This document shows positions 15,361 through 36,937 of a DNA stretch of 64,000 nt, in pieces (the stretch's first letter is position 1; each line of letters begins with the position of its first letter). This stretch comes from a plasmid. The stretch lies in the sequence record NZ_CP119397.1; one strand, 5' to 3'. Position numbers and translations under genes: made by a program. The notes under the pieces are model-generated. The model did not search any database, had not been told where the DNA came from, and saw only the letters and a list, made by a program, of their open reading frames with translations.

Positions 15361-15367
15361 GTGGGGG

Positions 15368-20886: not shown

Positions 20887-21138
20887 ATGATTTCTTATTC
20901 TATTGAGATATTTGATAAATGTAGTGAAGAGTTAATTAAAGAAATAAAAATACCTAATTATCAACTAGATCTAGTGATTGAGATCATGGGATTTGACACT
21001 ATAGAAAAAGAGTCCTTTATTAAGGGGGTGGGGGGTTTCAATGTTACAAAGGAACAGGCTGTCAAATTGGAATCCTTATTAATGGTAGAATTCCATTCAG
21101 AAAAATACATTATTCAGATTGCAGGTGGCGAGATATAA
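20887..21138 (+). CDS. hypothetical small protein (AT-rich, foreign-looking)
   Basis: 83-aa ORF with GAAAGG RBS, in a ~30% GC stretch between the CPCC gene and immunity paralog 3. Confidence 0.3.
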   Translation: MISYSIEIFDKCSEELIKEIKIPNYQLDLVIEIMGFDTIEKESFIKGVGGFNVTKEQAVKLESLLMVEFHSEKYIIQIAGGEI

Positions 21139-21197
21139 AAGCATTTATTTTCCCATTATTTTATGGATGGAATAAACAGTAAAATGGAATTTTATAA

Positions 21198-21665
21198 ATG
21201 ACCGTAAATGTTGATGCAATGATTAATAGCTTAGGAAAGAGTTACATTGAGCTTGTTGATTCAGGATTGATTGTGTACAAATCCCCGCCGAAAGGAGCGT
21301 CAGGCTCTCCTGTGCTTAGTCTGGAGATGGCATTAGAGGGAATTTTCTTATCCTTTAAACGTGATGGACGAATTTTAAAATCGATAACACTTCGGCTCCA
21401 ACATAATGAAAGTCATAATTGGGCTTTTCCTAATCAACTACCGCTTCCTTTACAAAATAATATGTCCCGCAGTTGGGTACATGAAAATATTGGGTCGCCA
21501 TTAAGAAGTGCGCCTCCCTACATTGTGATGAAACAGGCTTTTGGCTGGGCAGATCTGTATGAATCAAAAGGACGTCCTATACCCACCAATATGCAAATTA
21601 ACTATGACGTGATGGATAATGTAAGATCGGTCACCTTTATGCCCACGTCCGAACTTCGCTGGTAG
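21198..21665 (+). CDS. orphan immunity-protein paralog 3
   Basis: 155 aa: MTVNVDAMINSLGKSY...MPTSELRW. Clear paralog of the two genes above. Confidence 0.5.
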   Translation: MTVNVDAMINSLGKSYIELVDSGLIVYKSPPKGASGSPVLSLEMALEGIFLSFKRDGRILKSITLRLQHNESHNWAFPNQLPLPLQNNMSRSWVHENIGSPLRSAPPYIVMKQAFGWADLYESKGRPIPTNMQINYDVMDNVRSVTFMPTSELRW

Positions 21666-21682
21666 CGTCCCACACTTTACCC

Positions 21683-22739
21683 GGCTTTGTTGAATAAATC
21701 AGATTTCGGGTAAGTCTCCCCCGTAGCGGGTTGTGTTTTCAGGCAATACGCACGCTTTCAGGTATACCTGCTTTCGTCATTTTGTTCAGCGCTCGTACCA
21801 GGGCCATAGCCTCCGCAACCTGACCATCGTAGTCACGCAGCGTCAGTGAACCCCCGAACAGCTGTTTTACCCGGTACATCGCCGTTTCCGCTATCGAGCG
21901 ACGGTTGTAATCTGTTGTCCATTTCCACCGCGCATTACTCCCGGTCATTCGCTGATTAGCCACTGCACGGTTACGGTCTGCATATTCACCGGGCCAGTAA
22001 CCCGCACCTTTTCGGGGAGGGATAAGCGCGCTGATTTTCTTACGCCGCAGTTCATCGTGACATAGCCGGGTATCGTAAGCGCCATCGGCGGCGGCTGACC
22101 TGATTTTCCGGTGGGTTTGCCGGATTAACCCGGGGAAGGCCTCTGAGTCCGTAACGTTGTTCAGCGACAGGTCAGCGCAGATGATTTCATGTGTTTTACT
22201 GTCAACGGCGAGATGCAGCTTACGCCAGATACGGCGGCGTTCCTGGCCATGCTTTTTGACTTTCCACTCGCCTTCACCGAAGACCTTCAGCCCGGTGGAA
22301 TCAATTACCAGGTGTGCGATTTCACCCCGGGTGGGCGTTTTGAAACTGACATTAACCGACTTTGCCCGCCTGCTGACACAGCTGTAATCCGGGCAGCGTA
22401 GCGGAACGTTCATCAGAGAAAAAATGGAATCAATAAAGCCCTGCGCAGCCCGCAGGGTCAGCCTGAATACGCGTTTAATGACCAGCACAGTAGTGATGGC
22501 AAGGTCAGAATAGCGCTGAGGTCTGCCTCGTGAAGAAGGTGTTGCTGACTCATACCAGGCCTGAATAGCTTCATCATCCAGCCAGAAAGTTATGGAGCCA
22601 CGGTTGATGAGGGCTTTATTGTAGGTGGGCCAGTTGGTGATTTTGAACTTTTGCTTTGCCACGGAACGGTCTGCGTTGTCGGGAAGATACGTGATCTGAT
22701 CCTTCAACTCAGCAAAAGTTCGATTTATTCAACAAAGCC
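21683..22739 (-). mobile_element. IS903 (IS5 family), complete, 1057 bp
   Basis: 18-bp terminal inverted repeats ggctttgttgaataaatc at both ends. Flanked by the 9-bp direct repeat ACTTTACCC (21674..21682 and 22740..22748), a target-site duplication. The transposase is intact. Confidence 0.85.
21739..22707 (-). CDS. tnp: IS903 transposase (IS5 family, DDE)
   Basis: N-terminus MKDQITYLPDNADRSVAKQKFKITNWPTYNKALINRGS matches the IS903 transposase as recalled. Confidence 0.9.
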   Translation of the reverse strand: MKDQITYLPDNADRSVAKQKFKITNWPTYNKALINRGSITFWLDDEAIQAWYESATPSSRGRPQRYSDLAITTVLVIKRVFRLTLRAAQGFIDSIFSLMNVPLRCPDYSCVSRRAKSVNVSFKTPTRGEIAHLVIDSTGLKVFGEGEWKVKKHGQERRRIWRKLHLAVDSKTHEIICADLSLNNVTDSEAFPGLIRQTHRKIRSAAADGAYDTRLCHDELRRKKISALIPPRKGAGYWPGEYADRNRAVANQRMTGSNARWKWTTDYNRRSIAETAMYRVKQLFGGSLTLRDYDGQVAEAMALVRALNKMTKAGIPESVRIA

Positions 22740-23767: not shown

Positions 23768-24589
23768 TTAACGGGATTGCAGGAACGCCAGCAGGTCTTC
23801 GTTCAGCTGATCCTGATGGGTGGCTGCAAAGCCGTGCGGGCCGTTGTCGTAGACTTTCAGCTCCGCGCCGGGGATCAGGTCTGCCGAGAGTTTGCCGGTC
23901 GCCTCGAACGGCACGATCTGGTCATTGCTGCCGTGGATCACCAGCGTCGGCACACTGGCTTTTTTGATGTCGTCGCGGAAATCCGTCTCAGAGAAGGCGG
24001 TCACGCAGTCGATGGTGCCTTTCAGCGAGGCGAGCAGCGCGATGTTCAGGGTCTGGGTCAGCACGCCCTCAGAGACGTTCTGCCCGGCATTCAGGCCGTA
24101 GAACGGCGTGGCGAAATCGCTGATAAACTGCGCACGGTCTTTGAGCAGGCCCTCTTTGATGCCGTCAAACACGCTCTGATCCACGCCCTGTGGATGGTCA
24201 TCCGTCTTGCCGAAAATCGGTGTCACCGCGCCCAGCAGCACCAGCGCGGCCACGCGGTCGCTGCCGTAACGGCCGATATAGCGCGTCACGTCCCCGCCGC
24301 CCATCGAGAAGCCCACCAGCGTCACCTCGTTGAGATCGAGTCCGGTGATCAGGTCGTTGATGTCAGAGGCGAAGGTGTCGTAGTCATACCCTTCCCACGG
24401 CTGGTCGGAACGGCCAAACCCGCGACGGTCAAAGGCGATGGCGCGGTAGCCGCGTTCCGCCAGGAAGTTCATCTGGCTGTCCCACATGTCCGCATCCAGC
24501 GGCCAGCCGTGGCTGAACAGTACCGGCTTGCCGGTGCCCCAGTCTTTGTAATAGATCTGCGTGCCGTCTTGGGTGGTGATGGTGCTCAT
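23768..24589 (-). CDS. alpha/beta hydrolase (non-haem haloperoxidase/arylesterase-like)
   Basis: HGWPLDADMWD, GFSMGGG nucleophile elbow, C-terminal HG. AGGAG RBS before MSTITTQDG. Confidence 0.75.
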   Translation of the reverse strand: MSTITTQDGTQIYYKDWGTGKPVLFSHGWPLDADMWDSQMNFLAERGYRAIAFDRRGFGRSDQPWEGYDYDTFASDINDLITGLDLNEVTLVGFSMGGGDVTRYIGRYGSDRVAALVLLGAVTPIFGKTDDHPQGVDQSVFDGIKEGLLKDRAQFISDFATPFYGLNAGQNVSEGVLTQTLNIALLASLKGTIDCVTAFSETDFRDDIKKASVPTLVIHGSNDQIVPFEATGKLSADLIPGAELKVYDNGPHGFAATHQDQLNEDLLAFLQSR

Positions 24590-24917
24590 GGCGATCTCCT
24601 GAACGTAGTGGATGAAAGGGTCCGGATAAAACAGGGTAAATACACGCCGGAACAGGCGTTGCCTCAGCGGCACCCTATCCGGCGTGATCAACATACTCAG
24701 CCGCCCCCGCCGGGCGTGTTGGCGCCCCGGCAGGATGTGGCCGGATTATGGTCAGCGGGGCAACGCAGCGTCTAGTTATACGTAGGGATAGGTATACCTA
24801 AAGATAATAGTGCCGCCGCTGCGCCCGCCCTACCATGCACCCTGAGAGTTATGACTGCGGCCGCGCCCTTTTGCCGGCTGCCTTTTCCTTGTTACACCAA
24901 CCTCAATGGGTACCGCT

Positions 24918-25604
24918 ATGACCAACACGAAACTTGAAGTCCTGACGCCGGACAATTGCCAGATGATCTTCATCGACCAGCAGCCGCAAATGGCCTTTGG
25001 GGTACAGTCCATCGACCGCCAGGTGCTGAAAAACAACACCGTTGCGCTGGCAAAAGCGGCGAAAGTCTTCAATATCCCGACCATCATCACCACGGTGGAA
25101 ACCGAGAGCTTCTCCGGCCATACCTACCCTGAACTGCTGGACGTGTTCCCGACCCACGACATCCTGGAGCGCACCTCCATGAACTCCTGGGATGACCAGA
25201 AAGTGCGTGATGCGCTGGCCGCGACCGGCAAGAAAAAAGTGGTGGTCTCCGGCCTGTGGACGGAAGTGTGCAACAACAGCTTCGCCCTGTGCGCGATGCT
25301 GGAAGGCGGCTATGAGATCTACATGGTGGCGGACGCCTCCGGCGGCACCACCAAAGAGGCGCATGATTTCGCCATGCAGCGCATGATCCAGGCGGGCGTG
25401 ATCCCGGTGACCTGGCAGCAGGTGATGCTGGAGTGGCAGCGTGACTGGGCGCACAAAGAGACTTACACCGCGGTGATGGACATCGTCCGGGAGCATTCCG
25501 GTGCCTACGGCATGGGCGTGGATTACGCCTACACCATGGTGCACAAAGCCGAAGCCCGCCTGCCGGGCGACCACCGCACGCTGTCGCCGGTACCGGCCCG
25601 CTAA
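24918..25604 (+). CDS. isochorismatase-family hydrolase (YcaC-like)
   Basis: MTNTKLEVLTPDNCQMIFIDQQ aligns with the YcaC N-terminus. Catalytic Cys in GLWTEVC. Confidence 0.75.
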   Translation: MTNTKLEVLTPDNCQMIFIDQQPQMAFGVQSIDRQVLKNNTVALAKAAKVFNIPTIITTVETESFSGHTYPELLDVFPTHDILERTSMNSWDDQKVRDALAATGKKKVVVSGLWTEVCNNSFALCAMLEGGYEIYMVADASGGTTKEAHDFAMQRMIQAGVIPVTWQQVMLEWQRDWAHKETYTAVMDIVREHSGAYGMGVDYAYTMVHKAEARLPGDHRTLSPVPAR

Positions 25605-25661: not shown

Positions 25662-25928
25662 ATGAGCACCTGGTTGCTTTCTTTTGGGGCCGGTATCCTT
25701 ATCGGCTTGCTTTACGCGCTGCTGAAGGTGCGGTCACCGGCGCCCCCGGCGATAGCGCTGACCGGCCTGCTCGGCATGGTGTTGGGCGGTGTGCTGGCGA
25801 CCCAGGGCAGCGCCCTGCTCGCACAAAACAGTGCACAGGCCAGCCACCCTGTTGCACAGCGCGCCGTTTCCCAACACGCCCCGGCGGCCGCGCCTGCGGC
25901 GGTCTCCCTTTCGCACCCGGAGGCATGA
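25662..25928 (+). CDS. XapX-domain (DUF1427) small membrane protein
   Basis: GxLxGLxYAxLxVxSPAPPxxALxGLLGM core. Commonly sits next to isochorismatase genes. Confidence 0.5.
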   Translation: MSTWLLSFGAGILIGLLYALLKVRSPAPPAIALTGLLGMVLGGVLATQGSALLAQNSAQASHPVAQRAVSQHAPAAAPAAVSLSHPEA

Positions 25929-26200
25929 TGCTGAAAGCTTATCTCGTTTCTCTGCTGACCGGCCTGTTGGCAGGGATGGTGTACGTCGCGATTGCCGTGC
26001 CGTCGCCCGCACCGCCGGTAGCGGCCTTGCTGGGGCTGTTCGGGATGCTGGTCGGGGAGCAGATTATTCCGGCGATCCGGCGGCTTATTAACCGCCAGCC
26101 ACTGACGATGGCCTGGTTCCGGCATGAGTGCGTGCCTAAAATCAGCGGCACCCCGCCGCCGGAAACGGGCACTGAACCGCCTGCTGCCCCGCCGCGTTAG
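25927..26200 (+). CDS. XapX-domain (DUF1427) small membrane protein, tandem copy
   Basis: MMLKAYLVSLLTGLLAGMVYVAIAVPSPAPPVAALLGLFGM. Overlaps the previous stop. Confidence 0.5.
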
Positions 26201-26211: not shown

Positions 26212-26589
26212 ATGATGCCGCCGTGCATTGCCGTTATCGATGATGAACCCTCCGTCCGCCGCGGGCTGAGCAATCTGCTCCAGTCGGAGGGGTATAGTGT
26301 GGCGGTGTTTGCGTCAGCGGAAGCCTTTCTGCACGACGCCGGCACAGCGGCCAGCATCCTGGCGATTATTGATGTCAAACTCACGGGGATGAGCGGGTTT
26401 GAGCTGTTTGACCATCTGGCGCGTTACCACGCCCCGCCGCCGGTGATTTTTATCTCCGGTCACGGTGATGAACAGATGGAGCGCGCGGCCCTGGACCTTG
26501 GGGCCGTTGCTTTTTTACGTAAACCTATCAATATTGATACACTTTTAGAACATATCCAGCGCGTGCTTGACCGGCCTGACCGGAAATAA
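26212..26589 (+). CDS. single-domain response regulator (receiver only, FixJ/NarL-type REC)
   Basis: IAVIDDEP, phospho-acceptor Asp in IIDVKLTGMSG, FISGHGD. No output domain. GAGGA RBS. Confidence 0.75.
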   Translation: MMPPCIAVIDDEPSVRRGLSNLLQSEGYSVAVFASAEAFLHDAGTAASILAIIDVKLTGMSGFELFDHLARYHAPPPVIFISGHGDEQMERAALDLGAVAFLRKPINIDTLLEHIQRVLDRPDRK

Positions 26590-26649: not shown

Positions 26650-29600
26650 ATGAGCAACAACGCCCCCCAGTCCGCCTGGCCCGCCCCGGATGACCCGGCT
26701 GACGAACCGGCCTTTACGCTGGATGAGCGCGTGGTGTTTATGCCGCTGGCCCAGGATGGCTGCCTCACCTGGTCATGGTGCCGGCACCCGGTCTGCGGCC
26801 GCGAATACATTCTGGCCACCGCCGCCGGGGAAGAGGCGGAGCCGCAGGCGACGCTGCTGCTGAAAAATGAGTTCGCCCTGCGCGGCCACCTCGCGCCGGA
26901 CTGGGCGGTGATCCCGGTGGCCACGGCGCTGTATCACGGCCGCTACGCGCTGCTCTATCGCCCTTTCCCGTTTGAAACCCTGACGCGCATCACCGGCACC
27001 CCGGCCGGGGACATGGCAGTCTTCCTGGATCTGGCGCTGAACCTCTGCGCGCCCTTGTTGCAGATGCACCAGCACGGCCTTATCCACGGCGACATCAAAC
27101 CCGGCAACCTGTTTATCAATAATGACGGCAGTTGCCGCCTCGGCGGCTTCGGGCTGGCATCGGGCGCGACCGGCACCGGCGCACGCACCACCGTCTCGGC
27201 AGCGGGCGGGACGCTTGCCTATATGTCACCGGAACATGCCGCCCGTACCCGGCGCGCCGTGGACCACCGCAGCGATCTCTACAGCCTCGGCATCGTGCTG
27301 TATGAGCTGCTGACCGGCAGCCTGCCGTTTGACCTGACCGAGGGCGGGCAGGCGGAGTGGGTGCATCACCATATCGCCTCCGAGCCGCGCCCGCCGCATC
27401 AGGTACGCCCCGGCACGCCGGATATCCTCTCGTCGATTATTCTGCGGCTGCTGGCCAAATCCCCGGAAAACCGTTACCAGACCACCGAAGGGCTGATGGC
27501 CGATCTCCGCCGCTGCCGCGCCACCGTCTCCCCGTCCGGCAGCCTTATGCCCTTTCCGCTGGGTTTGCAGGATCGCGCGGCCGCCCTGCCGCTCTCTGAC
27601 GCGCTGTTCACCGGCCATCCGCAGAGCCAGGCGCTGCTTGAGGCCTTCAGCGGGGTAAACCACCGCGGCACGCAGGCGCTGGTGGTCATCAGCGGGCCGT
27701 CCGGAATCGGGAAATCGTCACTGATCGCCTCGGCGCTGAGTGCGCTGCAACACCAGCCGGTGCTGCTGGCGGTGAGCCGTGTGGATCAGTACCAACCGGC
27801 GCTGCCCTATGCGGTGCTGACGTCCGCCTTCCGGTCACTGGCGCTGCATATTCTCGGGCTGCCGGCGGCGGAGATTGCCCGCTGGAAAGCGCGGCTCAGC
27901 CAGACACTCGGCAGTTATGCCGGGCTGGCGGTGAACCTGGTGCCGGAGCTGGGCCTGTTGCTGGCGCAACCCTCGTGGATCCCGCCGGATACGCTGTCGA
28001 TTGATGCCCGTGCGCGTTTCAACCACATGGTGCTCTGCCTGATCAAAGCGTTCGCCACGCCCTGCTGCCCGCTGGTGCTGATGATTGATGACATCCACTG
28101 GGTGGATGCGGCCAGCCTGCAACTGCTGGAATATGTGGTGAGCAACAGCACCACACTGCCGCTGCTGATGGTGGTGGCGTACCGCGACGACACCCACACC
28201 CACGGCGGGCCGCCGCTGGCCGGGTTACGGGCTGCCGCGGCGAAGGTCACTGAGATCCGGCCGGAACCGATGACGGTAAAGGGCGTCACGCGCTGGCTGG
28301 CAGACGCCTTCCAGACACGGGTAGCGGGCATTGCCTCCCTGGCGGCGCTGGTGCACGAAAAAACCGGCGGCAACCCGCTGTTCGTGCAGCAATTTGTGAA
28401 ACGCATCGTGGATGACGGGCTGGTGACCCACCATACCCCGCATAAAAAATGGCATTACGATCTGCCGGCCATCCGCGCGCGCCATTACACCGAGAATGTC
28501 GCCGGGCTGGTGCTGCAACAACTGGCGCAGATGCCGCCCGACACGCGGAAATTGCTCGGCAGCCTGGCCTGCCTGGGCAATGCCGGGAATCTGGCGGTGC
28601 TCACCCGCGTGCTGGGAACCGGCATCACTGAAATGTGCCGGGTGCTGCACCCGGCCGTGGCGGCCCAGTTGATCACGTTGTCCGTCAATGAGTACGCATT
28701 TACCCATAACCGGGTGCAGGAAGCCGCGTTTGCGCTGCTGGACCCGGCGGAAAAGAGCCACCTGCATCTGGCCACGGCCAGCCTGCTGGCGGAGATGTCG
28801 CAACAGGCGACCGGCAACGACACGCTGTTCCGGGCGGTTCACCATGTGGCATCGGCGATTGAGGCGATTGAACCGCTGCCGCAGCGCCGGATGTTCCGCG
28901 AACTGAGCCTGCTGGCGGCCCAGCGGGCCAAACGCACCGGCGATTCGCTCTCGGCGCTGGGTTACCTGCGCACCGCCCGCGCGCTGGCCGACAAAAATGC
29001 GCCGGACGATCACCAGCTCACCTTCACGCTGGATCTGGAAGAGGCGGAGTGCGAGTTTCTGCTCGGCAACCTCGCCACCGCGGCAAGGCTTTGTGCGCAA
29101 CTGGCGGGCCGGCCCGGCGGGCTGGCGGAAAAAGCGGTGGCTGCCTGCCTGCTGGCGGAGATCCACATGCGGCAATCGCACCGGCAACAGGCGCTGGAGA
29201 CGGCCATCGCCTGGCTGTCGGTGTTCGGCATTTCGCTCAGCCGCTACCCGGACGTGCGCGAATGCGACGACGCCCATGAGGCAATCGTCGCACGGGTAGG
29301 CGACGATCCGGCAGCGGTGTTCAAGGCCCTGCCGCGCATGGATGACCGGGATACCGAAGCGGTCATGAACCTGCTCGCCAGCGCCGGGATTTTCGCCAGT
29401 TTCTGCTGCCCGCGCCTGCATTTCCTGATCCTCTGCCGGATGCTGCACCTGACGCTCGACCACGGCATGACCGGGGCCGGGGCGACGGCGCTGGCCTGGT
29501 TCGGCGTGTTGATCGGCCACCGCTACGAGACGTACCAGCGTGGTTTCCGCTATGGCCTGCTGGCGCGGGAGCTGGTCAGCCGCCACGGCTACCTTAATGC

Positions 29601-32229
29601 CGAAGCGCGCATCCTGCTGCCGCTCGACCAGCTCAGCGTCTGGACGCAGCCGCTCAGTTTCACCGTCGAATGCGCCAAAGCCTGCTTTACGGCGGGCGTT
29701 ACCCACGGCGATCTGACCTCTGCCTGTTTCGCCACCTGCCATCAGGTGATCAATTTCCTGACGCGCGGCGACCACCTTGACGCCGTGCTGACCAGCATCG
29801 ACCGGGGGCTGGCGTTTGTGCGCAAGGCGCATTTCCAGGATGTGGAAACCATTCTGCTGATCCAACGGCATCTGGTGGAGCACCTGCGCGACCCGAACGC
29901 CGCCTCCCCCGCCGGGGCCGGTTTCCTGCCCGACACCCTGCTGCCGGGCACGCGTGACCCGATGCCGACGCTGATGTTCTGGTACTGGCTCTACAAGGCG
30001 CTGGCGCACTTCGCGGCCGGGGAGTTCGCCCAGGCCGCCGATGACCTCAGCACCGCCGGCACCCTGAGCTGGTCAGCGCCGGGGCATATCCACCTGCTGG
30101 ATTACCACCTGTTCAGCATTCTTTCCCTGACCCAGCAGCTGACGCCGGAGAGCATCACCCCGGCACACCGCCGCTGGCTGCAACCGCACTACCGCAAACT
30201 CGCGCTGTGGGCGCAGCTGAACCCCGGCACCTTCGCCGACAAAGAGGCGCTGGTGTATGCCGAGATGGCGCGGCTTGATGCGCACTACAGCCTGGCGATG
30301 AAGCTGTATGAGAAGGCGATCCGCCTCTCCCGCGAGGCCGCCTTTGATCACATCAACGGGCTGGCGCACGAACTGGCCGGGCGTTTTGTACAGGCACGCA
30401 GCTACCCCACGGCGGCTGATGCCCACTTCCGGGGCGCGATGGCGGCCTGGGGACGTTGCGGTGCGCAGGCCAGGGTGCGGCAGCTTGAGCGGCAGTACCC
30501 GCATCTGGTGGTGCCGCGGCACACCTCGCCTTACGACACCATCGCCTTTGCCCAGAATGAGGAGATCCGTGACTTGCAAAGCGTGATTAACGCCTCGCGC
30601 GCACTCTCTGAAGAGATCAACCTCGGGCGGTTGATCCAGATTCTGATGACCATGCTGCTGGAGCGCGCCGGGGCGCAGCGCGGGCTGCTGATCCGCGTGG
30701 CCGGGAACCACCTGCCGGAGATTGAGGCCTGTGCTGACACCACCTCCGGCGGTGTGCAGGTACAGATTGTGAAAGCGGTGCCGGGGGCGACCGATCTGCC
30801 GCTGTCGGTGCTTTCTGCGGTGATCCGCACCGGGCAGGAGATCCGCACCGGCAAGCCGGGCGAGTTCAGCCCGTTCAGCCAGGACCCCTATCTGGTCACG
30901 TCCGGCGCGGCAGTGATGTGCGTGCCGATGTTCAAACAGGCCCGGCTGGTGGGCGTGCTCTATCTGGAGAACCGGCTGATGCCGGAGGTGTTTACCGCGG
31001 AGCATTCAAAAATCATCGGCATTCTGGCGGCGCAGGCGGCGGTGTCGCTGGAAACCGCCCGGCTCTATGCGGAGCTGCTGGAGGAGAACATCCAGCGCCG
31101 CCGGGTCGAGAAAGAGCTGCGTGCCAGCCAGACGTCACTGATGCTGGGCGAGCAGATCAGCCACACCGGCACCTGGCGCTGGGATGTGCAGCAGGATCTG
31201 ATGGTGATTTCCGACGAGTACGGGCGCATTTTAGGGCTGCCGCCGAGCCAGAAAAGCATTTCGATGGCGGATTTCCTGACACGGGTTCATGTGGATGACC
31301 ACCCCCGCATCAGCACACTGGTGACGGAAAGCGTGCGTGACCATGTCACGATGCGCGCCGAGTTCCGCATTATCCGCGAAGATGGCGCTACCCGTTACCT
31401 GCTGGGGATCGGCAACCCGGTGCAGGCCGGGGCGGAGGTCAATGAGTATTTCGGCACCATCACCGACATCACCGCCCACCGGCAGGCGGAAGACGCCGCA
31501 CGGGTGGCGCAGGCCGATCTGGCGCGGGTGGCGCGCGCCACCACTGTCGGCCAGCTGACGGCCTCCATCGCCCATGAGATCAACCAGCCGCTGATGTCGA
31601 TTGTCTCCAACGCCGGGGCGAGCCTGCGCTGGCTGGGCCGTGACCCGGCGCAACTGGGCAACGCCCGCGCCGGGCTGGAGGAGATCATCACTGAAGGGCA
31701 GCGGGCCGGGGAAATCATCCGCAGTTTGCAGGCGCTGACGCGTAACCAGCCGCCCTCTTTCGCGCGCGTTGATCTGCACCAGATCGCCCACCACATCATG
31801 ATGCTGTCGCGCAGCGAACTGGAGCGCCAGCGGGTGGCCGTGGAGTACCAGTTACAGGCCGAACAGCCCGGTATCTGGAGTGACAGTGTGCAGATCCAGC
31901 AGGTATTGCTGAATCTGGTGGCCAACGCCATCGACGCGATGGCCGACATCACCGACCGCCCGCGCCTGCTGACGCTCTCCTCCAGCAACCCGGCACCGGG
32001 TTACCTGCGTTTTTGCATTGCGGATACCGGCATCGGCCTCGACCCGGCGGTGATGGCGCGGGTGTTTGACTCGTTCTACACCACCAAAAAACAGGGGATG
32101 GGCATGGGCCTGACCATCAGCCACGCGATCATCGAACGCCACCGCGGCAAACTCTCGGCAGAAGCCCGCCGCCCCTACGGCAGTTGCTTTACCTTTGTGT
32201 TGCCGACAGAGGGGGAACACCCTCAATGA
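26650..32229 (+). CDS. giant signalling protein: Ser/Thr-kinase-like domain, AAA/STAND ATPase, helical (TPR/MalT-like) repeats, GAF, PAS, HisKA, HATPase_c
   Basis: Kinase-like region ~26770..27520 (HGDIKPGN, GGFGLAS, SPE, DLYSLGIVLYELLTG). Walker A ISGPSGIGKS ~27690, Walker B LVLMIDDIHW ~28080. GAF ~30590..31080. PAS ~31120..31470. H-box SIAHEINQPL ~31560. N/G1/G2 boxes NLVANAIDAM / DTGIGLD / GMGMGL to the end. GGAGG RBS. Confidence 0.85.
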   Translation: MSNNAPQSAWPAPDDPADEPAFTLDERVVFMPLAQDGCLTWSWCRHPVCGREYILATAAGEEAEPQATLLLKNEFALRGHLAPDWAVIPVATALYHGRYALLYRPFPFETLTRITGTPAGDMAVFLDLALNLCAPLLQMHQHGLIHGDIKPGNLFINNDGSCRLGGFGLASGATGTGARTTVSAAGGTLAYMSPEHAARTRRAVDHRSDLYSLGIVLYELLTGSLPFDLTEGGQAEWVHHHIASEPRPPHQVRPGTPDILSSIILRLLAKSPENRYQTTEGLMADLRRCRATVSPSGSLMPFPLGLQDRAAALPLSDALFTGHPQSQALLEAFSGVNHRGTQALVVISGPSGIGKSSLIASALSALQHQPVLLAVSRVDQYQPALPYAVLTSAFRSLALHILGLPAAEIARWKARLSQTLGSYAGLAVNLVPELGLLLAQPSWIPPDTLSIDARARFNHMVLCLIKAFATPCCPLVLMIDDIHWVDAASLQLLEYVVSNSTTLPLLMVVAYRDDTHTHGGPPLAGLRAAAAKVTEIRPEPMTVKGVTRWLADAFQTRVAGIASLAALVHEKTGGNPLFVQQFVKRIVDDGLVTHHTPHKKWHYDLPAIRARHYTENVAGLVLQQLAQMPPDTRKLLGSLACLGNAGNLAVLTRVLGTGITEMCRVLHPAVAAQLITLSVNEYAFTHNRVQEAAFALLDPAEKSHLHLATASLLAEMSQQATGNDTLFRAVHHVASAIEAIEPLPQRRMFRELSLLAAQRAKRTGDSLSALGYLRTARALADKNAPDDHQLTFTLDLEEAECEFLLGNLATAARLCAQLAGRPGGLAEKAVAACLLAEIHMRQSHRQQALETAIAWLSVFGISLSRYPDVRECDDAHEAIVARVGDDPAAVFKALPRMDDRDTEAVMNLLASAGIFASFCCPRLHFLILCRMLHLTLDHGMTGAGATALAWFGVLIGHRYETYQRGFRYGLLARELVSRHGYLNAEARILLPLDQLSVWTQPLSFTVECAKACFTAGVTHGDLTSACFATCHQVINFLTRGDHLDAVLTSIDRGLAFVRKAHFQDVETILLIQRHLVEHLRDPNAASPAGAGFLPDTLLPGTRDPMPTLMFWYWLYKALAHFAAGEFAQAADDLSTAGTLSWSAPGHIHLLDYHLFSILSLTQQLTPESITPAHRRWLQPHYRKLALWAQLNPGTFADKEALVYAEMARLDAHYSLAMKLYEKAIRLSREAAFDHINGLAHELAGRFVQARSYPTAADAHFRGAMAAWGRCGAQARVRQLERQYPHLVVPRHTSPYDTIAFAQNEEIRDLQSVINASRALSEEINLGRLIQILMTMLLERAGAQRGLLIRVAGNHLPEIEACADTTSGGVQVQIVKAVPGATDLPLSVLSAVIRTGQEIRTGKPGEFSPFSQDPYLVTSGAAVMCVPMFKQARLVGVLYLENRLMPEVFTAEHSKIIGILAAQAAVSLETARLYAELLEENIQRRRVEKELRASQTSLMLGEQISHTGTWRWDVQQDLMVISDEYGRILGLPPSQKSISMADFLTRVHVDDHPRISTLVTESVRDHVTMRAEFRIIREDGATRYLLGIGNPVQAGAEVNEYFGTITDITAHRQAEDAARVAQADLARVARATTVGQLTASIAHEINQPLMSIVSNAGASLRWLGRDPAQLGNARAGLEEIITEGQRAGEIIRSLQALTRNQPPSFARVDLHQIAHHIMMLSRSELERQRVAVEYQLQAEQPGIWSDSVQIQQVLLNLVANAIDAMADITDRPRLLTLSSSNPAPGYLRFCIADTGIGLDPAVMARVFDSFYTTKKQGMGMGLTISHAIIERHRGKLSAEARRPYGSCFTFVLPTEGEHPQ

Positions 32230-32480
32230 AAATGGCACACAACGCCGCCGTTTTCCCGCCCCTGGCAATAACCGGCAACTTTTCTAACGCGCACCCCCAG
32301 CGATAATGTTGGGGGTCAGAGAAGGCGTGGCCCCCTACCTTAAATAATCAGTATCACTGGCAGGTGCTGCCTATAATGCATTAAATCAACAGGCAGAGTA
32401 TTTTCTTAGGGATTTTACAGGCACCGATCTTGTTGAATGTTCTTATCTGATTCTGGCTTGGAACGATGTATAATCATCCG

Positions 32481-33032
32481 TCAGATATAAGTTATCTCTT
32501 TTTTATTATACACCACTGAATTATCAGGAATATCCTTATTGACGAACGTCATCGCGCCGATGACCACGTTGCTGCCGATCCGTAAATTCTCACCAATTAT
32601 GCAGCTGTTTGCCCCAACCTCCACGTTATCACCAATATAGATTTTCCCCTCCTGATCATTTTTTCTGACACCGATAGTGACATTCTGTTTTATATAAAAA
32701 TCATCTCCAATGATGCAACAGTCAGCTATCACAATGCCCACATAATGTGAAATGCTGAGGCCTACGCCGATTTTGGCACCTAATTTAATGTCTAAACCGT
32801 ACTTATTCCGTAGATTACGATTTACCCTGACAGCATATTTTTTCATTTTACCATTAAGGTAAAGGTAGTTAGCCACACGCCACCAAAAATGAAAACGCCG
32901 ATCCGGGCACTTAATGGCTTTATAAATTGTTTTTAACCAGGAAAAATTTTTATCAGTCCTCATGACTTCAGCCCGAAGACAAGATTTTAGATGTTCAATA
33001 CTGTTGTGTTGACGTTCCAAATTAAAACCCAA
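32481..33032 (-). CDS. hexapeptide-repeat acyltransferase (WcaF/CysE/Maa-like)
   Basis: Left-handed beta-helix repeats (IGDNVEVGANSCIIG, IGSNVVIGAMTFV). Sits in a ~32% GC island (32230..33450) that contrasts with the ~65% GC flanks. Confidence 0.6.
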   Translation of the reverse strand: MGFNLERQHNSIEHLKSCLRAEVMRTDKNFSWLKTIYKAIKCPDRRFHFWWRVANYLYLNGKMKKYAVRVNRNLRNKYGLDIKLGAKIGVGLSISHYVGIVIADCCIIGDDFYIKQNVTIGVRKNDQEGKIYIGDNVEVGANSCIIGENLRIGSNVVIGAMTFVNKDIPDNSVVYNKKEITYI

Positions 33033-33456
33033 GAAGCAGAAGATTTAGTTATTTGCTCATCCTGTTTTAAGAATAAAGCCCCCTGTTTTTAAACTGCTAA
33101 TTTAAAACCACTTAATCGCTCATGGGCTAAATAACCCTTCAAGAGCATGATACTTAAAATACGCTTAACTTTTTATAAAAAATTGATTGATATCAACAAA
33201 ATGCATTAAAACCTTCTATAGCAGTACTCGAGCAAGAAAATTTCTATATTCAATTTTAAAGCTAATTATGTTGATGAAATAATTTTCAGGTGCTTTAGTA
33301 GAAAGCTGTCTTATTAAGATTTTTAGCAGGTTTCGGCATTGGATAGACCTTACCGGGATGATAAGTGCCATTATTTTATCCTTATCCAGCCTGGAACAAT
33401 AAAATATCAGCACGATGAAGAGGGGAAGTACGCCGCCCTAGGGCGGCGGGCGTGGC

Positions 33457-33792
33457 TCAGGCGGCCGGGTTACCCGGCAATGCGGCGAGGTGGCGGCGCA
33501 GTTCGCCGTGGGCCATCGCCACGGCGGGGGAATCCTGCAAGGCGGCGAGGTATTTCTGGTGGAACGCGCTGGGATTGTCCGCGCCGGGCGTCAGTTGCTG
33601 TTCGATGCGGCGTTGGTAATCCTGCACCGTGCTCTGTTCCACCCCCTGCTCTTTATCATCCAGCCGCTCATCCAGCCCCACCAGGATCTCAGAAATCTGC
33701 TGGAGCCAGGCGAATTGCGGGTGGCTGGTCAGCAGTTGCAACTGGTCAAACGCGCTGCCTGCCGGGCCAAACTGGGCCAGTTCACTCTCCAC
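33457..33792 (-). CDS. hypothetical protein (GTG start), downstream of LuxR-type regulator
   Basis: 111-codon high-GC ORF with host-like codon usage. No in-frame ATG, so a GTG start is needed. No recognisable motif. Confidence 0.3.
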   Translation of the reverse strand: MESELAQFGPAGSAFDQLQLLTSHPQFAWLQQISEILVGLDERLDDKEQGVEQSTVQDYQRRIEQQLTPGADNPSAFHQKYLAALQDSPAVAMAHGELRRHLAALPGNPAA

Positions 33793-33897
33793 CAGCGTTT
33801 TATGCAGCCTGCGCAGCGAGGGTTGACATCGTTCTCAGCTGCGCGCGCGGGTCAGGCGGGGTGTGGGTCGTCAAGGGCTTCTCCTTTGAGAACAGAA

Positions 33898-34518
33898 TTA
33901 ACGGCTTTGGGATTTCAGGATATTCAGGCGCTCCGCAGCCCGGACTAAATCCGCCAGCGAGCGCGCCTGCATTTTTTCCATCACACGGCGTTTATGCACT
34001 TTGGCGGTGATTTCACTGACGCCCAGCGCATTGGCGATCTGTTTATTCAGTAACCCGCCGATCGCCAGCTCCAGCACTTCGCACTCGCGCGGCGTCAGGG
34101 TCTGATGCCGCTGCCGCAGCGCCAGGTGCTCGCAGGAGAGCGTGAGGTTCTTCTCCGCCAACTGCAAGGCATCGGCCACCGCGTTCAACAGCTGGTCGGC
34201 CATCACCGGTTTGGTCAAAAACTCATGCGCCCCGGCTTTCATCGCCTTGACGGACATCGGAATGGTGCCGAAGCCGGTCAGGAAAATTATCGGGATGGCG
34301 TGGCCGTTGTTATGCAGCGTTTCGGCCACGTCAAAGCCATTGGCGACCGGCATATTCATATCAAGAATCAGGCAACTGGGTACCGGGCTGAAGGGGTGCG
34401 CCAGAAACGCCTCAGCAGAGGCGAAATCCGCCACCGTATACGCTGCTGACTCCAGCAAGCGGACAAGCGAACGCCTGACCGCCTCATCATCGTCCACCAC
34501 ATACACTATCTGATCCAT
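33898..34518 (-). CDS. LuxR/FixJ-family response regulator (REC + HTH)
   Basis: VYVVDDDEAVRRSL, D in LILDMNMP, K in LTKP. C-terminal LTPRECEVLELAIGGLLNKQIANALGVSEITAKVHKRRVMEKM is a LuxR-type HTH. AGGA RBS before MDQIVYV. Confidence 0.8.
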   Translation of the reverse strand: MDQIVYVVDDDEAVRRSLVRLLESAAYTVADFASAEAFLAHPFSPVPSCLILDMNMPVANGFDVAETLHNNGHAIPIIFLTGFGTIPMSVKAMKAGAHEFLTKPVMADQLLNAVADALQLAEKNLTLSCEHLALRQRHQTLTPRECEVLELAIGGLLNKQIANALGVSEITAKVHKRRVMEKMQARSLADLVRAAERLNILKSQSR

Positions 34519-34772
34519 CGTTAAGTCCTGTTTTTGCCGTGGGTCAGCCACACGGGCCGCCCAGCCAGAATTACCGCGATCATGAAGTCAGAACCACCAG
34601 ATTGATTTAGTAGGATATTATGACTTTATAATAATGAGTATGGATATAATGAGCGAATACTTTATTTCGTGAAGAATTAAGCAAAATGCCATAAGGAAAC
34701 CGGCCAGGTCTCCTTTTCAGCGGTTAACCTGACCGGATGGTCTCTTCCAACCTGCGCTGCTTGGGGCCTGCG

Positions 34773-35762
34773 TCAGCTTTTCAGCTGCGGCGGGACGGGC
34801 GGCGTGCCGTGGGTATGGAAGGTGTCGATGGTTTTCAGCCCCCAGGCCTGCCCTTTTTTCCGGTCAGCCTCTGTCCAGACCACGGTTTGCCAGTCCGGTG
34901 CCAGGATCAGCCGGGCGCCGGAGTTTGCCAGCTCCACGCGGTTGCCCGCCGGCTCCCAGACATACAGGAAAAAGGTGCCCTGAATCGCGTGTTTATGCGG
35001 GCCGGTCTCAATGTGGATGCCGTTTTCCAGAAAGATATCGGCGGCGCGCAGAATGTCTTCACGGCAGTCTGTGGCGTAGGTGACGTGGTGCAGGCGGCCG
35101 TTACCGCCGCCATGCTCTTCGGTACAGGCCAGATCATAAGTTTTATTGTTGACGGTAAACCAGCACCCGCCGATACGGCCGTTATCCAGTTGGATCATCT
35201 CTGTCACCCGCGAGCCGAGGCGGGTTTCCATGAATTTTTTAAATTCCGTCACATCGGCGGCCAGCAGATTAAGATGATCCAGGCGGCGCGGGCAGGCACC
35301 ACGGCTATGGTAGCGCTGCGCCAGATTTTTCAGCGACGGGCGTTCACCTGCTTCGGCCTGGTAGCGCACGGTATCGTAGTAAATCTCAAAAATGTGCCCA
35401 AACGGATCGGCAAAGCGGAAAGCGCGGCCGTGCCCCGGATCGTCATCCACCCAGCCGATCACCTCATAGCCACTGGCTTCAATCGCTGCGACACGGCGCA
35501 TCAGGGCGGCCTCAGACGAGGCGCGGTACGCGATATGCCCGACGCCGGTGGTGTGGTGGCGCGTGAGTTTCAGCGTATGGAATTCGTAATCATCCCAGGC
35601 GCGCAACCACGCATGGTGCTCTGTCCGGGCCGACACCGTCAGGCCATACACATTGACAAAGAAATCGAGGCTCTCTTCAAATTTGTCAGTGTAAAGCTCG
35701 ACGTGGGCCAGATGGGCAATATCAAAACAGGGTTCCGGCAGGGAATTTGTCATTGTCATCAT
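34773..35762 (-). CDS. extradiol ring-cleavage dioxygenase (catechol 2,3-dioxygenase family, two VOC modules)
   Basis: 329 aa. Twin VOC domains, and His/Glu ligand context (HVELYT, GVGHIAY, HHVTY, E near the C-terminus) typical of type I extradiol dioxygenases. Confidence 0.65.
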   Translation of the reverse strand: MMTMTNSLPEPCFDIAHLAHVELYTDKFEESLDFFVNVYGLTVSARTEHHAWLRAWDDYEFHTLKLTRHHTTGVGHIAYRASSEAALMRRVAAIEASGYEVIGWVDDDPGHGRAFRFADPFGHIFEIYYDTVRYQAEAGERPSLKNLAQRYHSRGACPRRLDHLNLLAADVTEFKKFMETRLGSRVTEMIQLDNGRIGGCWFTVNNKTYDLACTEEHGGGNGRLHHVTYATDCREDILRAADIFLENGIHIETGPHKHAIQGTFFLYVWEPAGNRVELANSGARLILAPDWQTVVWTEADRKKGQAWGLKTIDTFHTHGTPPVPPQLKS

Positions 35763-35924: not shown

Positions 35925-36827
35925 TTACTCCTCCCCCTGCGCCTTCAGCCGCGCCTCTAAAAATGACAGGAAAACACGGGTAACCTCGCTGCGCTGGCGG
36001 TGCTGGGAGTAGAGCGCGTTCAGGCTCAGCGGCGCGGGGTGGTGCGCGGCCAGCACCGGCACCAGGTCGCCGCTTTTCAGCGCCGGGCCGACGATAAACG
36101 CCGGCAGCAGCACCAGCCCCAGCCCGGCGATCGCCGCGTCACGCAGCACTTCGCCGTTGTTGCTGATGATCGGCCCCTGCACATCGAGCATTTTGCGCTT
36201 GCCGTCCTGCACCAGTTCCCAGCCGGTCTGCCCTTCCCGTCCGTAACGCAGGCAGGCGTGCGCCAGCAGGTCCTCCGGCGTCTGCGGCTCCCCGGCACGC
36301 CTGAGGTAGGCGGGGCTGGCGCAGACCACCCGGCTGAGCCGGCCGAGGCGGCGGGCGATCAGCGTCGAGTCCGCCAGCGCGCCGATGCGGATGGCGATGT
36401 CAAACCCCTCACCAATCAGGTCCACCTGCCTGTCCCCCAGCTCCACCTGGAACCGCACCGCCGGGTGCAGGCTCAGGAATTCCGCAATCAGCGGCGAGAG
36501 GTGGCTCATGCCAAATGACATCGGCATGCTGATGCGGAACGTGCCGTGCAGCGCCTGGCGGCGTTCGCTGACGGCCTGTTCCGCCTCGTGGATGTCATCC
36601 AGAATGCGCTGCGCATGCTGGCCGAACACCTGCCCCGCCTCGGTCACCGAAAGCTTGCGGGTGTTGCGGATCAGCAGCCGCGCGCCCAGTGAGTCCTCCA
36701 GCGCCGCCATCCGGCGGCTGACGTACTGCTTTGACAGCAACAGCTGATCCGCTGCCGCGGTAAAGCTGCCGGCGCGGATCACGGTGATAAAAATACGAAG
36801 GTCTTCTATCTGCACATTGTCCACCAT
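35925..36827 (-). CDS. LysR-family transcriptional regulator
   Basis: HTH IEDLRIFITVIRAGSFTAAADQLLLSKQYVSRRMAALE. Divergent from the pirin gene. Confidence 0.8.
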   Translation of the reverse strand: MVDNVQIEDLRIFITVIRAGSFTAAADQLLLSKQYVSRRMAALEDSLGARLLIRNTRKLSVTEAGQVFGQHAQRILDDIHEAEQAVSERRQALHGTFRISMPMSFGMSHLSPLIAEFLSLHPAVRFQVELGDRQVDLIGEGFDIAIRIGALADSTLIARRLGRLSRVVCASPAYLRRAGEPQTPEDLLAHACLRYGREGQTGWELVQDGKRKMLDVQGPIISNNGEVLRDAAIAGLGLVLLPAFIVGPALKSGDLVPVLAAHHPAPLSLNALYSQHRQRSEVTRVFLSFLEARLKAQGEE

Positions 36828-36937
36828 ATTGTGACAGTGATTGTCATTACAGCCGATTGTTGGGCAAAACAGTTTACGTATACTTGTTCCCCATAGGAAG
36901 GGCAACCGCCTTTCACCCCATCACCAAGGAGAACACC

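Follow-up and report, generated by a model that had tools for sequence, protein, structure and literature searches.

A degenerate protein kinase-like domain fused to a predicted STAND NTPase and a FixL-type histidine kinase core within a conserved Enterobacterales gene module

The window analysed in this study is a 64,000-nucleotide stretch of the plasmid record NZ_CP119397.1, and the features discussed below are collected in Table 1. The central gene is an open reading frame with an ATG start and a GGAGGAA Shine-Dalgarno sequence 5–11 nt 5' of it, which encodes a protein of 1859 aa. This protein is 100% identical to WP_304483930.1, a deposited protein from a Chimaeribacter arupi plasmid, and has more than 2712 homologues at E ≤ 1e-10; the reading frame is therefore not a chance reading. 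From the N-terminus, it is composed of a kinase-like domain, an AAA_16/STAND module, about 800 aa of helical repeats, and GAF, PAS, HisKA and HATPase_c domains, the order that had been given in the initial annotation and that was reproduced by Pfam and, for the repeats, by an AF2 model; all the motifs quoted there were likewise found at the mapped positions. A search for transmembrane segments across the whole protein found none, the sole hydrophobic peak being the Walker B strand. The protein is a soluble cytoplasmic two-component sensor histidine kinase with multiple domains, and it carries the NCBI name [quoted passage not shown]. Cysteines at C289, C801 and C1424 are invariant, and those at C872, C929 and C1026 are near-invariant. 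Horizontal transfer was considered from the 65% GC content of the kinase gene; this value was uninformative, because the GC content of the window varies throughout (0.42–0.70).

Table 1. Features of the kinase locus in the window, with coordinates, strand and the basis of each assignment
Feature	Coordinates	Strand	Basis or remark
Alpha/beta hydrolase	23774..24589	-	Divergently transcribed, member of conserved neighbourhood
Conserved non-coding footprint, divergent promoter region	24743..24797	.	Candidate operator
YcaC-family isochorismatase-like cysteine hydrolase	24906..25604	+	First gene of co-oriented cluster
Two small DUF1427 genes (25662-25928 and 25925-26200)	25662..26200	+	4-nt overlap
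Stand-alone receiver response regulator, 125 aa	26212..26589	+	D10/D11, D54, S82, K103 by direct reading
Whole kinase gene	26650..32229	+	ORF, Pfam, homologues, identity to WP_304483930.1
Predicted pseudokinase domain, about residues 22-295	26713..27534	+	AF2/Foldseek fold, motif mapping, conservation, dN/dS
Predicted STAND-type P-loop NTPase core (AAA_16)	27622..28173	+	Pfam E 1.5e-23, Walker motif conservation
Winged-helix region and about 30 helices, predicted TPR-like sensor/arm	28174..30549	+	AF2, Foldseek
GAF domain	30622..31050	+	Pfam, conservation, dN/dS
PAS domain (PAS_3)	31204..31425	+	Pfam
FixL-type DHp (HisKA) and HATPase_c	31549..32211	+	Pfam, conservation, closest solved sequences
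FixJ/NarL-family response regulator (REC + GerE HTH), 217 aa	33898..34551	-	Convergent with kinase gene

The neighbourhood of the kinase gene was compared across related loci. In the window, the stand-alone receiver is co-oriented with the kinase gene and separated from it by a 60-nt gap, and in all 80 loci compared it is the immediate upstream neighbour of that gene. The FixJ-type regulator follows the kinase closely, in convergent orientation, in about 63 of the 80, and a few further loci carry it at another place; in the window, a 1.7-kb low-GC insert lies between the kinase and this regulator. This regulator is the probable DNA-binding partner of the kinase. The YcaC-like hydrolase was found in about 74 of the 80 loci with 82–93% identity, above that of the kinase itself, and the two DUF1427 genes are arranged alike in the Cronobacter plasmid pA84-1. 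The divergent promoter region contains a footprint composed of GGATTATG (24743–24750) and GTTATAC-N9-GGTATAC (24775–24797), whose columns are at least 80% conserved over 74 distinct orthologous upstream regions and whose motif is unique in the window. An MFS/DoxX/amidohydrolase block, present in related loci, was sought elsewhere in the window and is absent from it. The hydrolase/transport gene neighbourhood is conserved in at least 80 Enterobacterales species, in many of them on the chromosome. What is new here is this conserved Enterobacterales module, comprising the YcaC-like hydrolase, two DUF1427 genes, the stand-alone receiver, the kinase, the FixJ-type regulator and the upstream motif.

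The C-terminal part of the protein was examined by Pfam, which placed GAF at residues 1325–1467, PAS_3 at 1519–1592, HisKA at 1634–1700 and HATPase_c at 1745–1854, the HisKA and HATPase_c matches exceeding the cut-offs. The H-box SIAHEINQPL (1639–1648, with the phospho-accepting H1642), the N box (1753–1764), the G1 box DTGIG (1792–1796) and the G2 box GMGMGL (1816–1821) are all present, and H1642, N1755/N1759, D1792-x-G-x-G, F1806/F1809 and G1816-x-G-x-G-L are invariant in 114 homologues, bearing out the earlier view that the histidine kinase is intact. The closest solved sequences to the DHp/CA region are FixL DHp/CA chimeras (E 2.5e-40), and both response regulators of the locus score best against FixJ. 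The scores, however, are far under the equivalog cut-offs (168.8 bits against 850 for FixL, NF041777, of which the DHp/CA part alone matches, and 178.7 against 255 for FixJ), no haem-PAS is indicated, and the sensor part is entirely different from that of FixL. Conservation in the protein peaks at residues 1401–1500 (mean identity 0.84–0.87), into which the C-terminal part of the GAF domain falls, and in the two comparisons with close Chimaeribacter sequences the GAF domain had the lowest dN/dS of the protein (0.07 and 0.13).

Directly after the kinase-like domain, Pfam matched AAA_16 at residues 325–508 (E 1.5e-23), with a Walker A motif GPSGIGKS (349–356) and a Walker B motif LMIDD (477–481). 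Across 114 homologues, G349, G352, G354 and K355 do not vary, D480 and D481 are kept in 105 and 107 of them, respectively, and a winged-helix GGNPL motif (573–577) is near-invariant. A PDB sequence search with residues 301–1327 gave no meaningful match, and the fold search alone found relatives: the AF2 model of the STAND/helical-arm region (pLDDT 77.3) gave as best PDB matches in Foldseek the STAND-TPR protein 6mfv (E 6.5e-9), MalT 8bob and Apaf-1 3shf. The global TM values against these structures were low (0.13–0.31), because the domain arrangement differs from theirs. In addition, a weak match to TPR_CHK1 (PF25503) was found at about residues 1138–1230 (E 0.019), and 8 of 26 wider relatives matched the same profile, with a best E of 1.9e-8. 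Judged from the predicted structure, the AAA_16 module is a STAND NTPase, as had been proposed; it shares with MalT, the PH0952-type STAND-TPR protein and Apaf-1 a P-loop NOD with Walker A and B motifs, a winged helix that carries a GxP-type motif, and an extended helical/TPR arm. The output of MalT is a LuxR HTH and that of Apaf-1 a CARD, whereas the predicted switch here lies between a kinase-like domain and a GAF-PAS-histidine kinase.

We also considered that the 1859-aa protein might be a STAND/NLR-like anti-phage defence sensor and not a housekeeping signalling kinase. A STAND NTPase with a TPR-like sensor would fit such a role, the kinase gene is plasmid-borne in C. arupi and Cronobacter, and the PADLOC models PD-T4-6 and mad6 match residues 126–296. 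However, the PADLOC matches, together with that of NCBIfam MADS6, are confined to the generic kinase-like domain, and the defence reading was therefore rejected as extremely unlikely. Further, the output consists of a canonical kinase of the FixL type and two response regulators, Pfam detected no nuclease or other effector domain in the protein, and the neighbourhood described above is widely conserved, unlike variable defence islands.

The fold and motifs of the N-terminal kinase-like domain were then compared with those of canonical kinases. The Pfam Pkinase match (residues 130–281) covers the C-lobe part of the profile only, and when the family N-terminus was aligned with PknB profile to profile, the C-lobe was again covered and the N-lobe left unaligned; the N-lobe, the most divergent part of the domain, was mapped from the predicted structure and from those phmmer alignments to canonical kinase domains other than PknB that extend into it. 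AF2 predicted a full bilobal Hanks-type fold (pLDDT 81.7) with beta1–beta5, alphaC and the C-lobe helices, for which PknB 1o6y was the best Foldseek match (E 1e-17, TM 0.83). The motif positions are HGDIKPGN (146–153) for the catalytic loop, RLGGFGLAS (163–171) and SPE (193–195). In the alignment to PknB, the HRD Arg is replaced by G147 and the DFG Asp by G166 (GFG, 166–168). The Gly-rich loop is AQDGCL (34–39), in which A34, D36 and L39 stand at the three glycines of GxGxxG and G37 alone is kept; the beta3 strand YILA takes the place of VAIK with A56 at the Lys position, and W41 stands at the beta2 Val position in the alignments to canonical kinase domains. Asp148, Lys150, Asn153, the alphaC E74, SPE and the C-lobe are kept.

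The same state was seen across the family. In 115 homologues, the DFG Asp column holds Gly in 102, Ser in 12 and Asn in 1, and the beta3 Lys column Ala in 111, Val in 2 and Thr in 2, so that neither Asp nor Lys occurs once at its position. No Lys occurs anywhere in columns 50–61 of the 115 homologues, Arg standing at column 51 in 5. The three Gly-loop columns are A86/G10, E93/D16 and I71/L25/V12, and the Mg-binding Asn column is Asn in 76, His in 27 and other residues in 12. Among wider-family representatives, Gly stands at the DFG Asp in 45 of 52, indicating that Gly for Asp is the norm across the wider proteobacterial family. These alignments sustain the initial annotation, which had described a degenerate Ser/Thr-kinase domain that lacks the DFG Asp, the VAIK Lys context and the Gly-loop and retains SPE and the C-lobe. 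By every sequence criterion applied, the kinase-like domain is catalytically degenerate, and a role as a scaffold that feeds into the histidine kinase may reasonably be proposed.

The loss of the canonical catalytic residues and the divergence of the N-lobe would also be expected of a decaying relic without a function of its own. We regard this as very unlikely. The dN/dS of the domain against close orthologues is 0.12–0.28, comparable to the rest of the protein, including the STAND and kinase modules, and the domain is therefore maintained by selection. Residues 201–250, with a mean identity of 0.73, are among the most conserved of the protein, and the 115 homologues show almost no variation in the C-lobe motifs GTxAYMSPEH, SDLYSLG and RYQT. 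Moreover, the full-length domain is kept in 115 of the 115 close homologues, as well as in the wider-family representatives, including named alpha- and beta-proteobacterial members.

Such strong selection on the whole domain would also fit a second alternative, that it is an atypical functional enzyme or a nucleotide sensor with non-canonical nucleotide binding and that the protein is truly "trifunctional", as its NCBI name has it. Mg-free Ser/Thr phosphorylation of the CASK type, substitute residues for the Lys and Asp, or a different reaction (compare SelO and SidJ) would be the options. D148, K150 and E74 are each kept in 112 of the 115 homologues, and the alphaC residues K72, N73 and R78 are nearly invariant. 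CASK is a kinase that is active despite having GFG for DFG. WNK, with its relocated Lys, is mentioned in a 2025 review in Biochem Soc Trans (PMC12599244), and some kinases of that kind are active. Given these precedents and the retention of D148, K150, N153 and E74, nucleotide binding or atypical catalysis is conceivable. According to the same review, ATP binding may persist in some pseudokinases of the CP1 family, and DLHK, a related family, was modelled with an alternative ATP-binding mode (PMC12599244). Against this, four ATP/Mg elements have been lost together, namely the Gly-loop, the beta3 Lys, the DFG Asp and the Mg-binding Asn (this last across the family). The acidic E/D36 at the second Gly of the phosphate-binding loop and the invariant W41 at the adenine-contacting beta2 Val would be expected to disfavour nucleotide binding, and K72, which is two residues ahead of E74 on the helix, would therefore face away from it. 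We consider an atypical enzyme or sensor unlikely, and the Ser/Thr-kinase part of the NCBI name is probably wrong for the Enterobacterales clade.

The initial annotation had regarded the architecture as a rare hybrid, which was not supported. Relatives of the kinase-like domain were found in at least 594 species-level genomes, and Pkinase, AAA_16 and GAF occur together in 26 of 26 diverse representatives, 24–25 of which also carry the kinase output domains. The family is abundant in Enterobacterales, with members in Enterobacter hormaechei, Klebsiella, Cronobacter, Pantoea and Serratia. The searched literature contained no experimental study of an Enterobacterales member, in agreement with the earlier statement on this point, and a literature search on COG3899 gave nothing experimental on the kinase family.

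Related architectures have been described in three settings. The CP1 family is rich in pseudokinases and occurs in cyanobacteria and proteobacteria; its members are cytosolic without a transmembrane segment, and in all of them the kinase-like domain is joined to a predicted ATPase of the COG3899 type, with GAF and PAS as frequent additions (PMC12599244). A large share of CP1 members have a degraded VAIK, HRD or DFG, and no function has been assigned to them (PMC12599244). The protein studied here is alike in being cytosolic and in having GAF and PAS and a proteobacterial host, C. arupi; its AAA_16 STAND module, directly after the kinase-like domain, may correspond to the COG3899-type ATPase. 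However, the listed CP1 examples from Leptospira have the motif states VLIK/HKS/DFS and KILR/HNQ/WLG, and the YILA/HGD/GFG of our protein resembles rather the AVLT/HRD/GFG listed for the sister family DLHK. The assignment to CP1 therefore rests on the architecture and not on the family's own classifier. The review leaves out the Enterobacterales clade, the histidine-kinase output, the partner regulators and the gene neighbourhood (PMC12599244).

Cyanobacterial "dual protein kinases" (cbSTKIII; HstK, Pkn40 and Pkn41 of Anabaena; PMC2176072) likewise combine a Ser/Thr-kinase domain at the N-terminus with one or more GAF domains and end in HisKA/HATPase_c. Their catalytic loop has H-K-D in place of H-R-D, as in most wider-family representatives, whereas the protein here has HGD. 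In most of them both the beta3 Lys and the DFG Asp are retained, the latter usually as DFS, which makes kinase activity plausible; both residues are lost here.

Hybrid histidine kinases of fungal group X feed an HPt phosphorelay. By description, these proteins of the C. albicans Chk1 type resemble ours in being large, in being cytosolic and in combining a GAF domain with a "Ser/Thr-kinase-related" domain at the N-terminus (PMC6324907), and TPR_CHK1 in the bacterial relatives is a further likeness. They have been linked to peroxide adaptation, morphogenesis and virulence and generally carry a C-terminal receiver (PMC6324907), which is absent from the protein here, with its separate regulators. 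No new category is opened: both the architecture (PMC2176072, PMC6324907) and the family's tendency towards the pseudokinase state have been described before.

Taken as a whole, the locus is probably best explained by a pseudokinase, a STAND switch and GAF/PAS domains that together set the output of a histidine kinase signalling to its partner regulators. The kinase-like domain would lack canonical Mg-ATP phosphotransfer and would act as a non-catalytic interaction or dimerisation module, and the STAND NTPase with its TPR-like arm would, by analogy with MalT, be an oligomerisation switch gated by nucleotide and ligand. The STAND switch, GAF and PAS would then set the autophosphorylation/phosphatase state of the C-terminal kinase dimer. 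Phosphate from the kinase would pass to the FixJ-type regulator, which probably controls the divergent YcaC-hydrolase/DUF1427 and alpha/beta-hydrolase genes via the conserved TATAC-repeat motif; phosphate would also pass to the stand-alone receiver, which would serve as a sink or for feedback. Homology and synteny are the grounds on which the oligomerisation switch, the partners in phosphotransfer and the regulon are proposed.

A further reading, which we hold to be speculative and rather improbable, is that the kinase domain has been repurposed as a small-molecule or protein-partner receptor, or as a non-canonical enzyme, that gates STAND-driven oligomerisation. The protein would then form a bacterial NLR/RAF-like "signalosome" whose induced assembly switches the histidine kinase on, and in many Enterobacterales its target would be a conserved hydrolase cluster of the detoxification type. 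Its mechanism may resemble that of the oxidant-sensing group X kinases of fungi, and the conserved cysteines (C289, C801, C1424, C872, C929 and C1026) could have a part in this.

If the mechanism of a pseudokinase and STAND switch setting the histidine-kinase output is true, the module would offer a genetically tractable bacterial system for pseudokinase and STAND control of a histidine kinase, and its conserved partners, neighbour genes and promoter motif make up a defined regulon hypothesis.

The kinase gene is one ATG-initiated open reading frame of 1859 codons with a ribosome-binding site (GGAGGAA) 5–11 nt 5' of its start, and its product is identical to WP_304483930.1/WKZ94724.1, deposited as 'AAA family ATPase (plasmid) [Chimaeribacter arupi]'. 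The window is thus most probably a piece of a C. arupi megaplasmid. At NCBI, other proteins of its 90% cluster are called 'trifunctional serine/threonine-protein kinase/ATP-binding protein/sensor histidine kinase'. No transmembrane segment was found in the 1859-aa protein. The Pfam domain order matched exactly that read in the initial annotation, and each motif string quoted there was located in the protein where it had been placed.

Positions of the kinase gene, its neighbours (window coordinates) and the domains and predicted elements of the kinase (residues)
Feature	Position	Strand	Context
alpha/beta hydrolase	23774-24589	-	divergent transcription
YcaC-family cysteine hydrolase	24906-25604	+	co-oriented cluster
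two DUF1427 genes	25662-25928 and 25925-26200	+	co-oriented cluster
125-aa stand-alone receiver	26212-26589	+	co-oriented cluster
kinase	26650-32229	+	co-oriented cluster
hexapeptide-repeat acyltransferase-like ORF	32481-33032	-	within 32230-33897
111-aa ORF	33457-33792	-	no Pfam match; within 32230-33897
FixJ/NarL-type regulator	33898-34551	-	convergent with kinase
329-aa ORF	34773-35762	-	adjoins FixJ-type regulator
LysR-type regulator ORF	35925-36905	-	adjoins FixJ-type regulator
beta1	residues 29-36		AlphaFold2 model
beta2	residues 39-45		AlphaFold2 model
beta3	residues 52-58		AlphaFold2 model
alphaC	residues 64-80		AlphaFold2 model
beta4 and beta5			present in N-lobe, AlphaFold2 model
Pkinase	residues 130-281		Pfam; profile positions 105-257, C-lobe only
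AAA_16	residues 325-508		Pfam
GAF	residues 1325-1467		Pfam
PAS_3	residues 1519-1592		Pfam
HisKA	residues 1634-1700		Pfam
HATPase_c	residues 1745-1854		Pfam

The alignment to structures of PknB, a canonical Hanks-type kinase, spanned residues 126–292 and placed HGDIKPGN opposite HRDVKPAN and GGFG opposite MDFG, with the HRD Arg replaced by G147, the DFG Asp by G166, and Asp148, Lys150 and Asn153 of the catalytic loop retained. A profile–profile comparison with PknB left the register of the C-lobe motifs unchanged and gave no sequence-level alignment of the N-lobe. An AlphaFold2 model of residues 1–325 (21 input homologues, mean pLDDT 81.7) predicted a normal N-lobe, and its top PDB match was the PknB catalytic domain (E 1e-17; TM 0.83, target-normalised). 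The N-lobe register, taken from several mutually agreeing canonical kinase domains in the representative search, set GxGGxGxV opposite A34-Q-D36-G37-C-L39-T-W41 and V-A-I-K opposite Y53-I-L-A56, and the beta3 Lys position is therefore Ala56. All three glycines of GxGxxG are substituted, one by an acidic residue, and the adenine-contacting beta2 Val is an invariant Trp; the SPE motif and the remaining C-lobe are near-canonical. The degenerate kinase domain claimed in the initial annotation was thus confirmed by alignment with canonical kinases, in which the DFG Asp falls at G166, VAIK at Y53–A56, and the Gly-loop is lost.

The conservation of these substitutions was assessed in 115 full-length relatives (53–100% identity) from Serratia, Leclercia, Enterobacter, Kosakonia, Cronobacter, Klebsiella, Mixta, Sodalis, Pantoea, Erwinia, and others. 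The DFG Asp column held Gly in 102, Ser in 12, and Asn in one; the beta3 Lys column Ala in 111, Val in two, and Thr in two; the HRD Arg column Gly in 93, Ser in 15, Asn in four, Cys in two, and Ala in one; and the Mg-binding Asn column Asn in 76, His in 27, Ser in seven, Ala in three, and Thr in two. Degeneracy is therefore no peculiarity of a single sequence. The predicted alphaC E74 was kept in 112/115, GTxAYMSPEH, SDLYSLG, and RYQT were near-invariant, and residues 201–250 were among the best-conserved stretches of the whole protein. The dN/dS values of both kinase lobes (0.12–0.28; Nei-Gojobori, versus two close Chimaeribacter orthologues) lay in the range of the STAND and kinase modules, and these selection data contradict the reading of the domain as a relic. 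Judging from these sequence comparisons, the kinase-like domain is under selection, but not for canonical catalysis. The main rival reading, that the domain, with its DFG Asp, beta3 Lys, and Gly-loop substituted, still binds nucleotide or has an atypical activity, is unlikely; the conservation of Asp148, Lys150, and Glu74 speaks for it, and CASK, with GFG, is a precedent for atypical kinase activity. A further precedent is the DLHK family, for which an alternative ATP pose was modelled (PMC12599244).

A phmmer search with residues 1–310 against 1.84 billion cluster representatives returned 4115 matches at E ≤ 1e-30, and 52 of the best 150 had just one kinase-like domain, located N-terminally and with its N-lobe included in the alignment. 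The DFG Asp position was Gly in 45 and Asp in three of these 52, the catalytic loop read H-K-D in 28 and H-R-D in 14, and the beta3 Lys was kept in 5 of the 29 with beta3 covered; other kinase stretches in the same match list had the DFG Asp in 191/243. Cupriavidus, Rhizobium leguminosarum, and Nannocystis supplied named members, of which that from Nannocystis retains both Lys and Asp. Loss of the Mg-binding Asp is therefore old and typical of a large family with mainly proteobacterial members; within it, the Enterobacterales clade, with HGD and without the beta3 Lys, is a more degraded branch. A Pfam scan of 26 long representatives found Pkinase, AAA_16, and GAF in all 26, HATPase_c in 25, HisKA in 24, PAS families (PAS, PAS_3) in 19, TPR_CHK1 in eight, a receiver domain in four, and GGDEF in one. 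With this uniform architecture, and with relatives encoded in at least 594 species genomes (at least 600 pattern matches, one genome per species), the designation 'rare hybrid' was wrong, and the pseudokinase idea restates a property already known for the family.

The STAND and histidine kinase modules are intact by sequence. Among 114 homologues, the Walker A residues G349, G352, G354, and K355 (GPSGIGKS) were invariant, Walker B D480 and D481 were present in 105 and 107, and the GGNPL motif was kept (G573 in 78, G574 and P576 in all, N575 in 112). An AlphaFold2 model of residues 310–1311 (pLDDT 77.3) comprised an alpha/beta P-loop core, small helical and winged-helix elements, and about 30 more helices. 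Its top Foldseek match in the PDB was 6mfv, a STAND protein that carries TPR repeats (E 6.5e-9); MalT (8bob) and Apaf-1 (3shf) came next, with the low global TM scores expected of flexible multi-domain proteins. A PDB sequence search with residues 301–1327 yielded no meaningful match. The kinase core is closest to FixL, and its H1642 and N, G1, F, and G2 boxes are invariant, as expected of the intact histidine kinase first proposed. The C-terminal part of the GAF domain falls within the best-conserved stretch of the protein. Cysteines 289, 801, and 1424 were invariant in the 114 homologues and cysteines 133, 872, 929, and 1026 present in 103–109; several of them, e.g., that of an EAECEF motif, are in the helical sensor region. 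They might indicate sensing of redox state or metals, in keeping with the connection of fungal group X kinases to oxidants.

Among the best 80 of the at least 594 loci, all from Enterobacterales except one MAG labelled Stenotrophomonas, a receiver gene lay directly 5' of the kinase gene in 80/80, a YcaC-like gene was found in about 74 (82–93% identity, better conserved than the kinase), DUF1427 in about 70, and a convergent FixJ-type regulator just 3' of the kinase in about 63, with a few more elsewhere in the locus. The YcaC-like hydrolase keeps this identity across genera (L002–L081) whose kinases are only 50–65% identical, a conservation that seems unusually strong for an accessory-looking gene. 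The Cronobacter plasmid pA84-1 is annotated with the same gene order and, in addition, an amidohydrolase-DoxX-MFS block adjoining the alpha/beta hydrolase. In related loci (e.g., L001, 4641–8554), such a block of about 4 kb separates the alpha/beta hydrolase from the YcaC-like gene; it is absent from the whole window (corresponding site 24590–24905) and from C. coloradensis, which also lacks the YcaC-like and DUF1427 genes. The segment 32230–33897, between the kinase and regulator genes, looks like an insertion, because the regulator abuts the kinase gene in pA84-1 and about half of the related loci; GC is 0.478 over 32001–34000, compared with 0.65 for the kinase gene. The 329-aa ORF resembles an extradiol/catechol 2,3-dioxygenase, this and the LysR likeness being judged by eye. 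Alignment of 74 distinct regions 5' of the YcaC-like gene revealed a conserved footprint, GGATTATG plus a repeated TATAC element (GTTATAC-N9-GGTATAC, occurring once in the window, at 24775–24797), a candidate operator for the FixJ-type regulator.

A second, divergent copy, 51% identical over the kinase-like domain, is present in the representative genome of C. arupi (NZ_PJZI01000017.1, match 10001–10975). A 5' receiver of its own and a YcaC-like gene with 91% identity accompany it, whereas a DUF1427 gene and a convergent FixJ-type regulator are missing. The species thus seems to possess two paralogous systems, of which one is plasmid-borne. Elsewhere in the window, a full-length cspA thermoregulator element (179 bits) lies at 59348–59785 (-), and an 80-nt ARAGORN tRNA-Cys call just 3' of it on the same strand (59187–59266) may be spurious because it overlaps the expected cspA coding region. 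GC is strongly uneven (0.42 at 20001–22000, 0.67–0.70 at 10001–16000), which suggests a mosaic, plasmid-like region.

Taken together, sequence and predicted structure show that the N-terminus is of pseudokinase type, that the STAND NTPase, which has a helical arm, and the FixL-type kinase are both intact, that GAF and PAS domains lie between them, and that two response regulators are conserved. The pseudokinase would act non-catalytically, as a surface for interaction or dimerisation, and the STAND module as a MalT-like, nucleotide- and ligand-gated assembly switch, with ligand input contributed by GAF and PAS. Assembly would govern trans-autophosphorylation of the kinase; phosphate may then pass both to the FixJ-type regulator, which would control the hydrolase genes next to it, and to the stand-alone receiver, which would be a sink or feedback element. 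The conserved setting, both two-component and metabolic, contradicts a role in defence; PADLOC matches of the kinase cover the generic kinase domain only.

Cyanobacterial 'dual protein kinases' (cbSTKIII; HstK, Pkn40, Pkn41) combine an N-terminal Ser/Thr kinase with GAF and histidine kinase domains and have H-K-D, mostly a retained Lys, and DFS (PMC2176072). Fungal group X hybrid histidine kinases, tied to peroxide adaptation, morphogenesis, and virulence, carry a 'Ser/Thr-kinase-related' domain and GAF (PMC6324907), and TPR_CHK1 connects them with the helical region of the bacterial relatives. A 2025 review describes CP1, a family found in cyanobacteria and proteobacteria whose members are all cytosolic; about 40% are pseudokinases, and every pseudokinase member is joined to a predicted ATPase of COG3899, in many cases together with GAF/PAS (PMC12599244). 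The kinase fits CP1 by architecture, on which the assignment is based; its motif states are also like those of the sister family DLHK. Our literature search found no experimental work on any Enterobacterales member and no description of the YcaC/DUF1427/receiver/kinase/FixJ-type module or of a conserved promoter motif 5' of the YcaC-like gene. The initial observation is thus borne out and its interpretation supported in part, the kinase belonging to a known kind and not to a new category of system. The 'trifunctional' annotation is likely to need correction, and the module is testable in medically and agriculturally relevant Enterobacterales.
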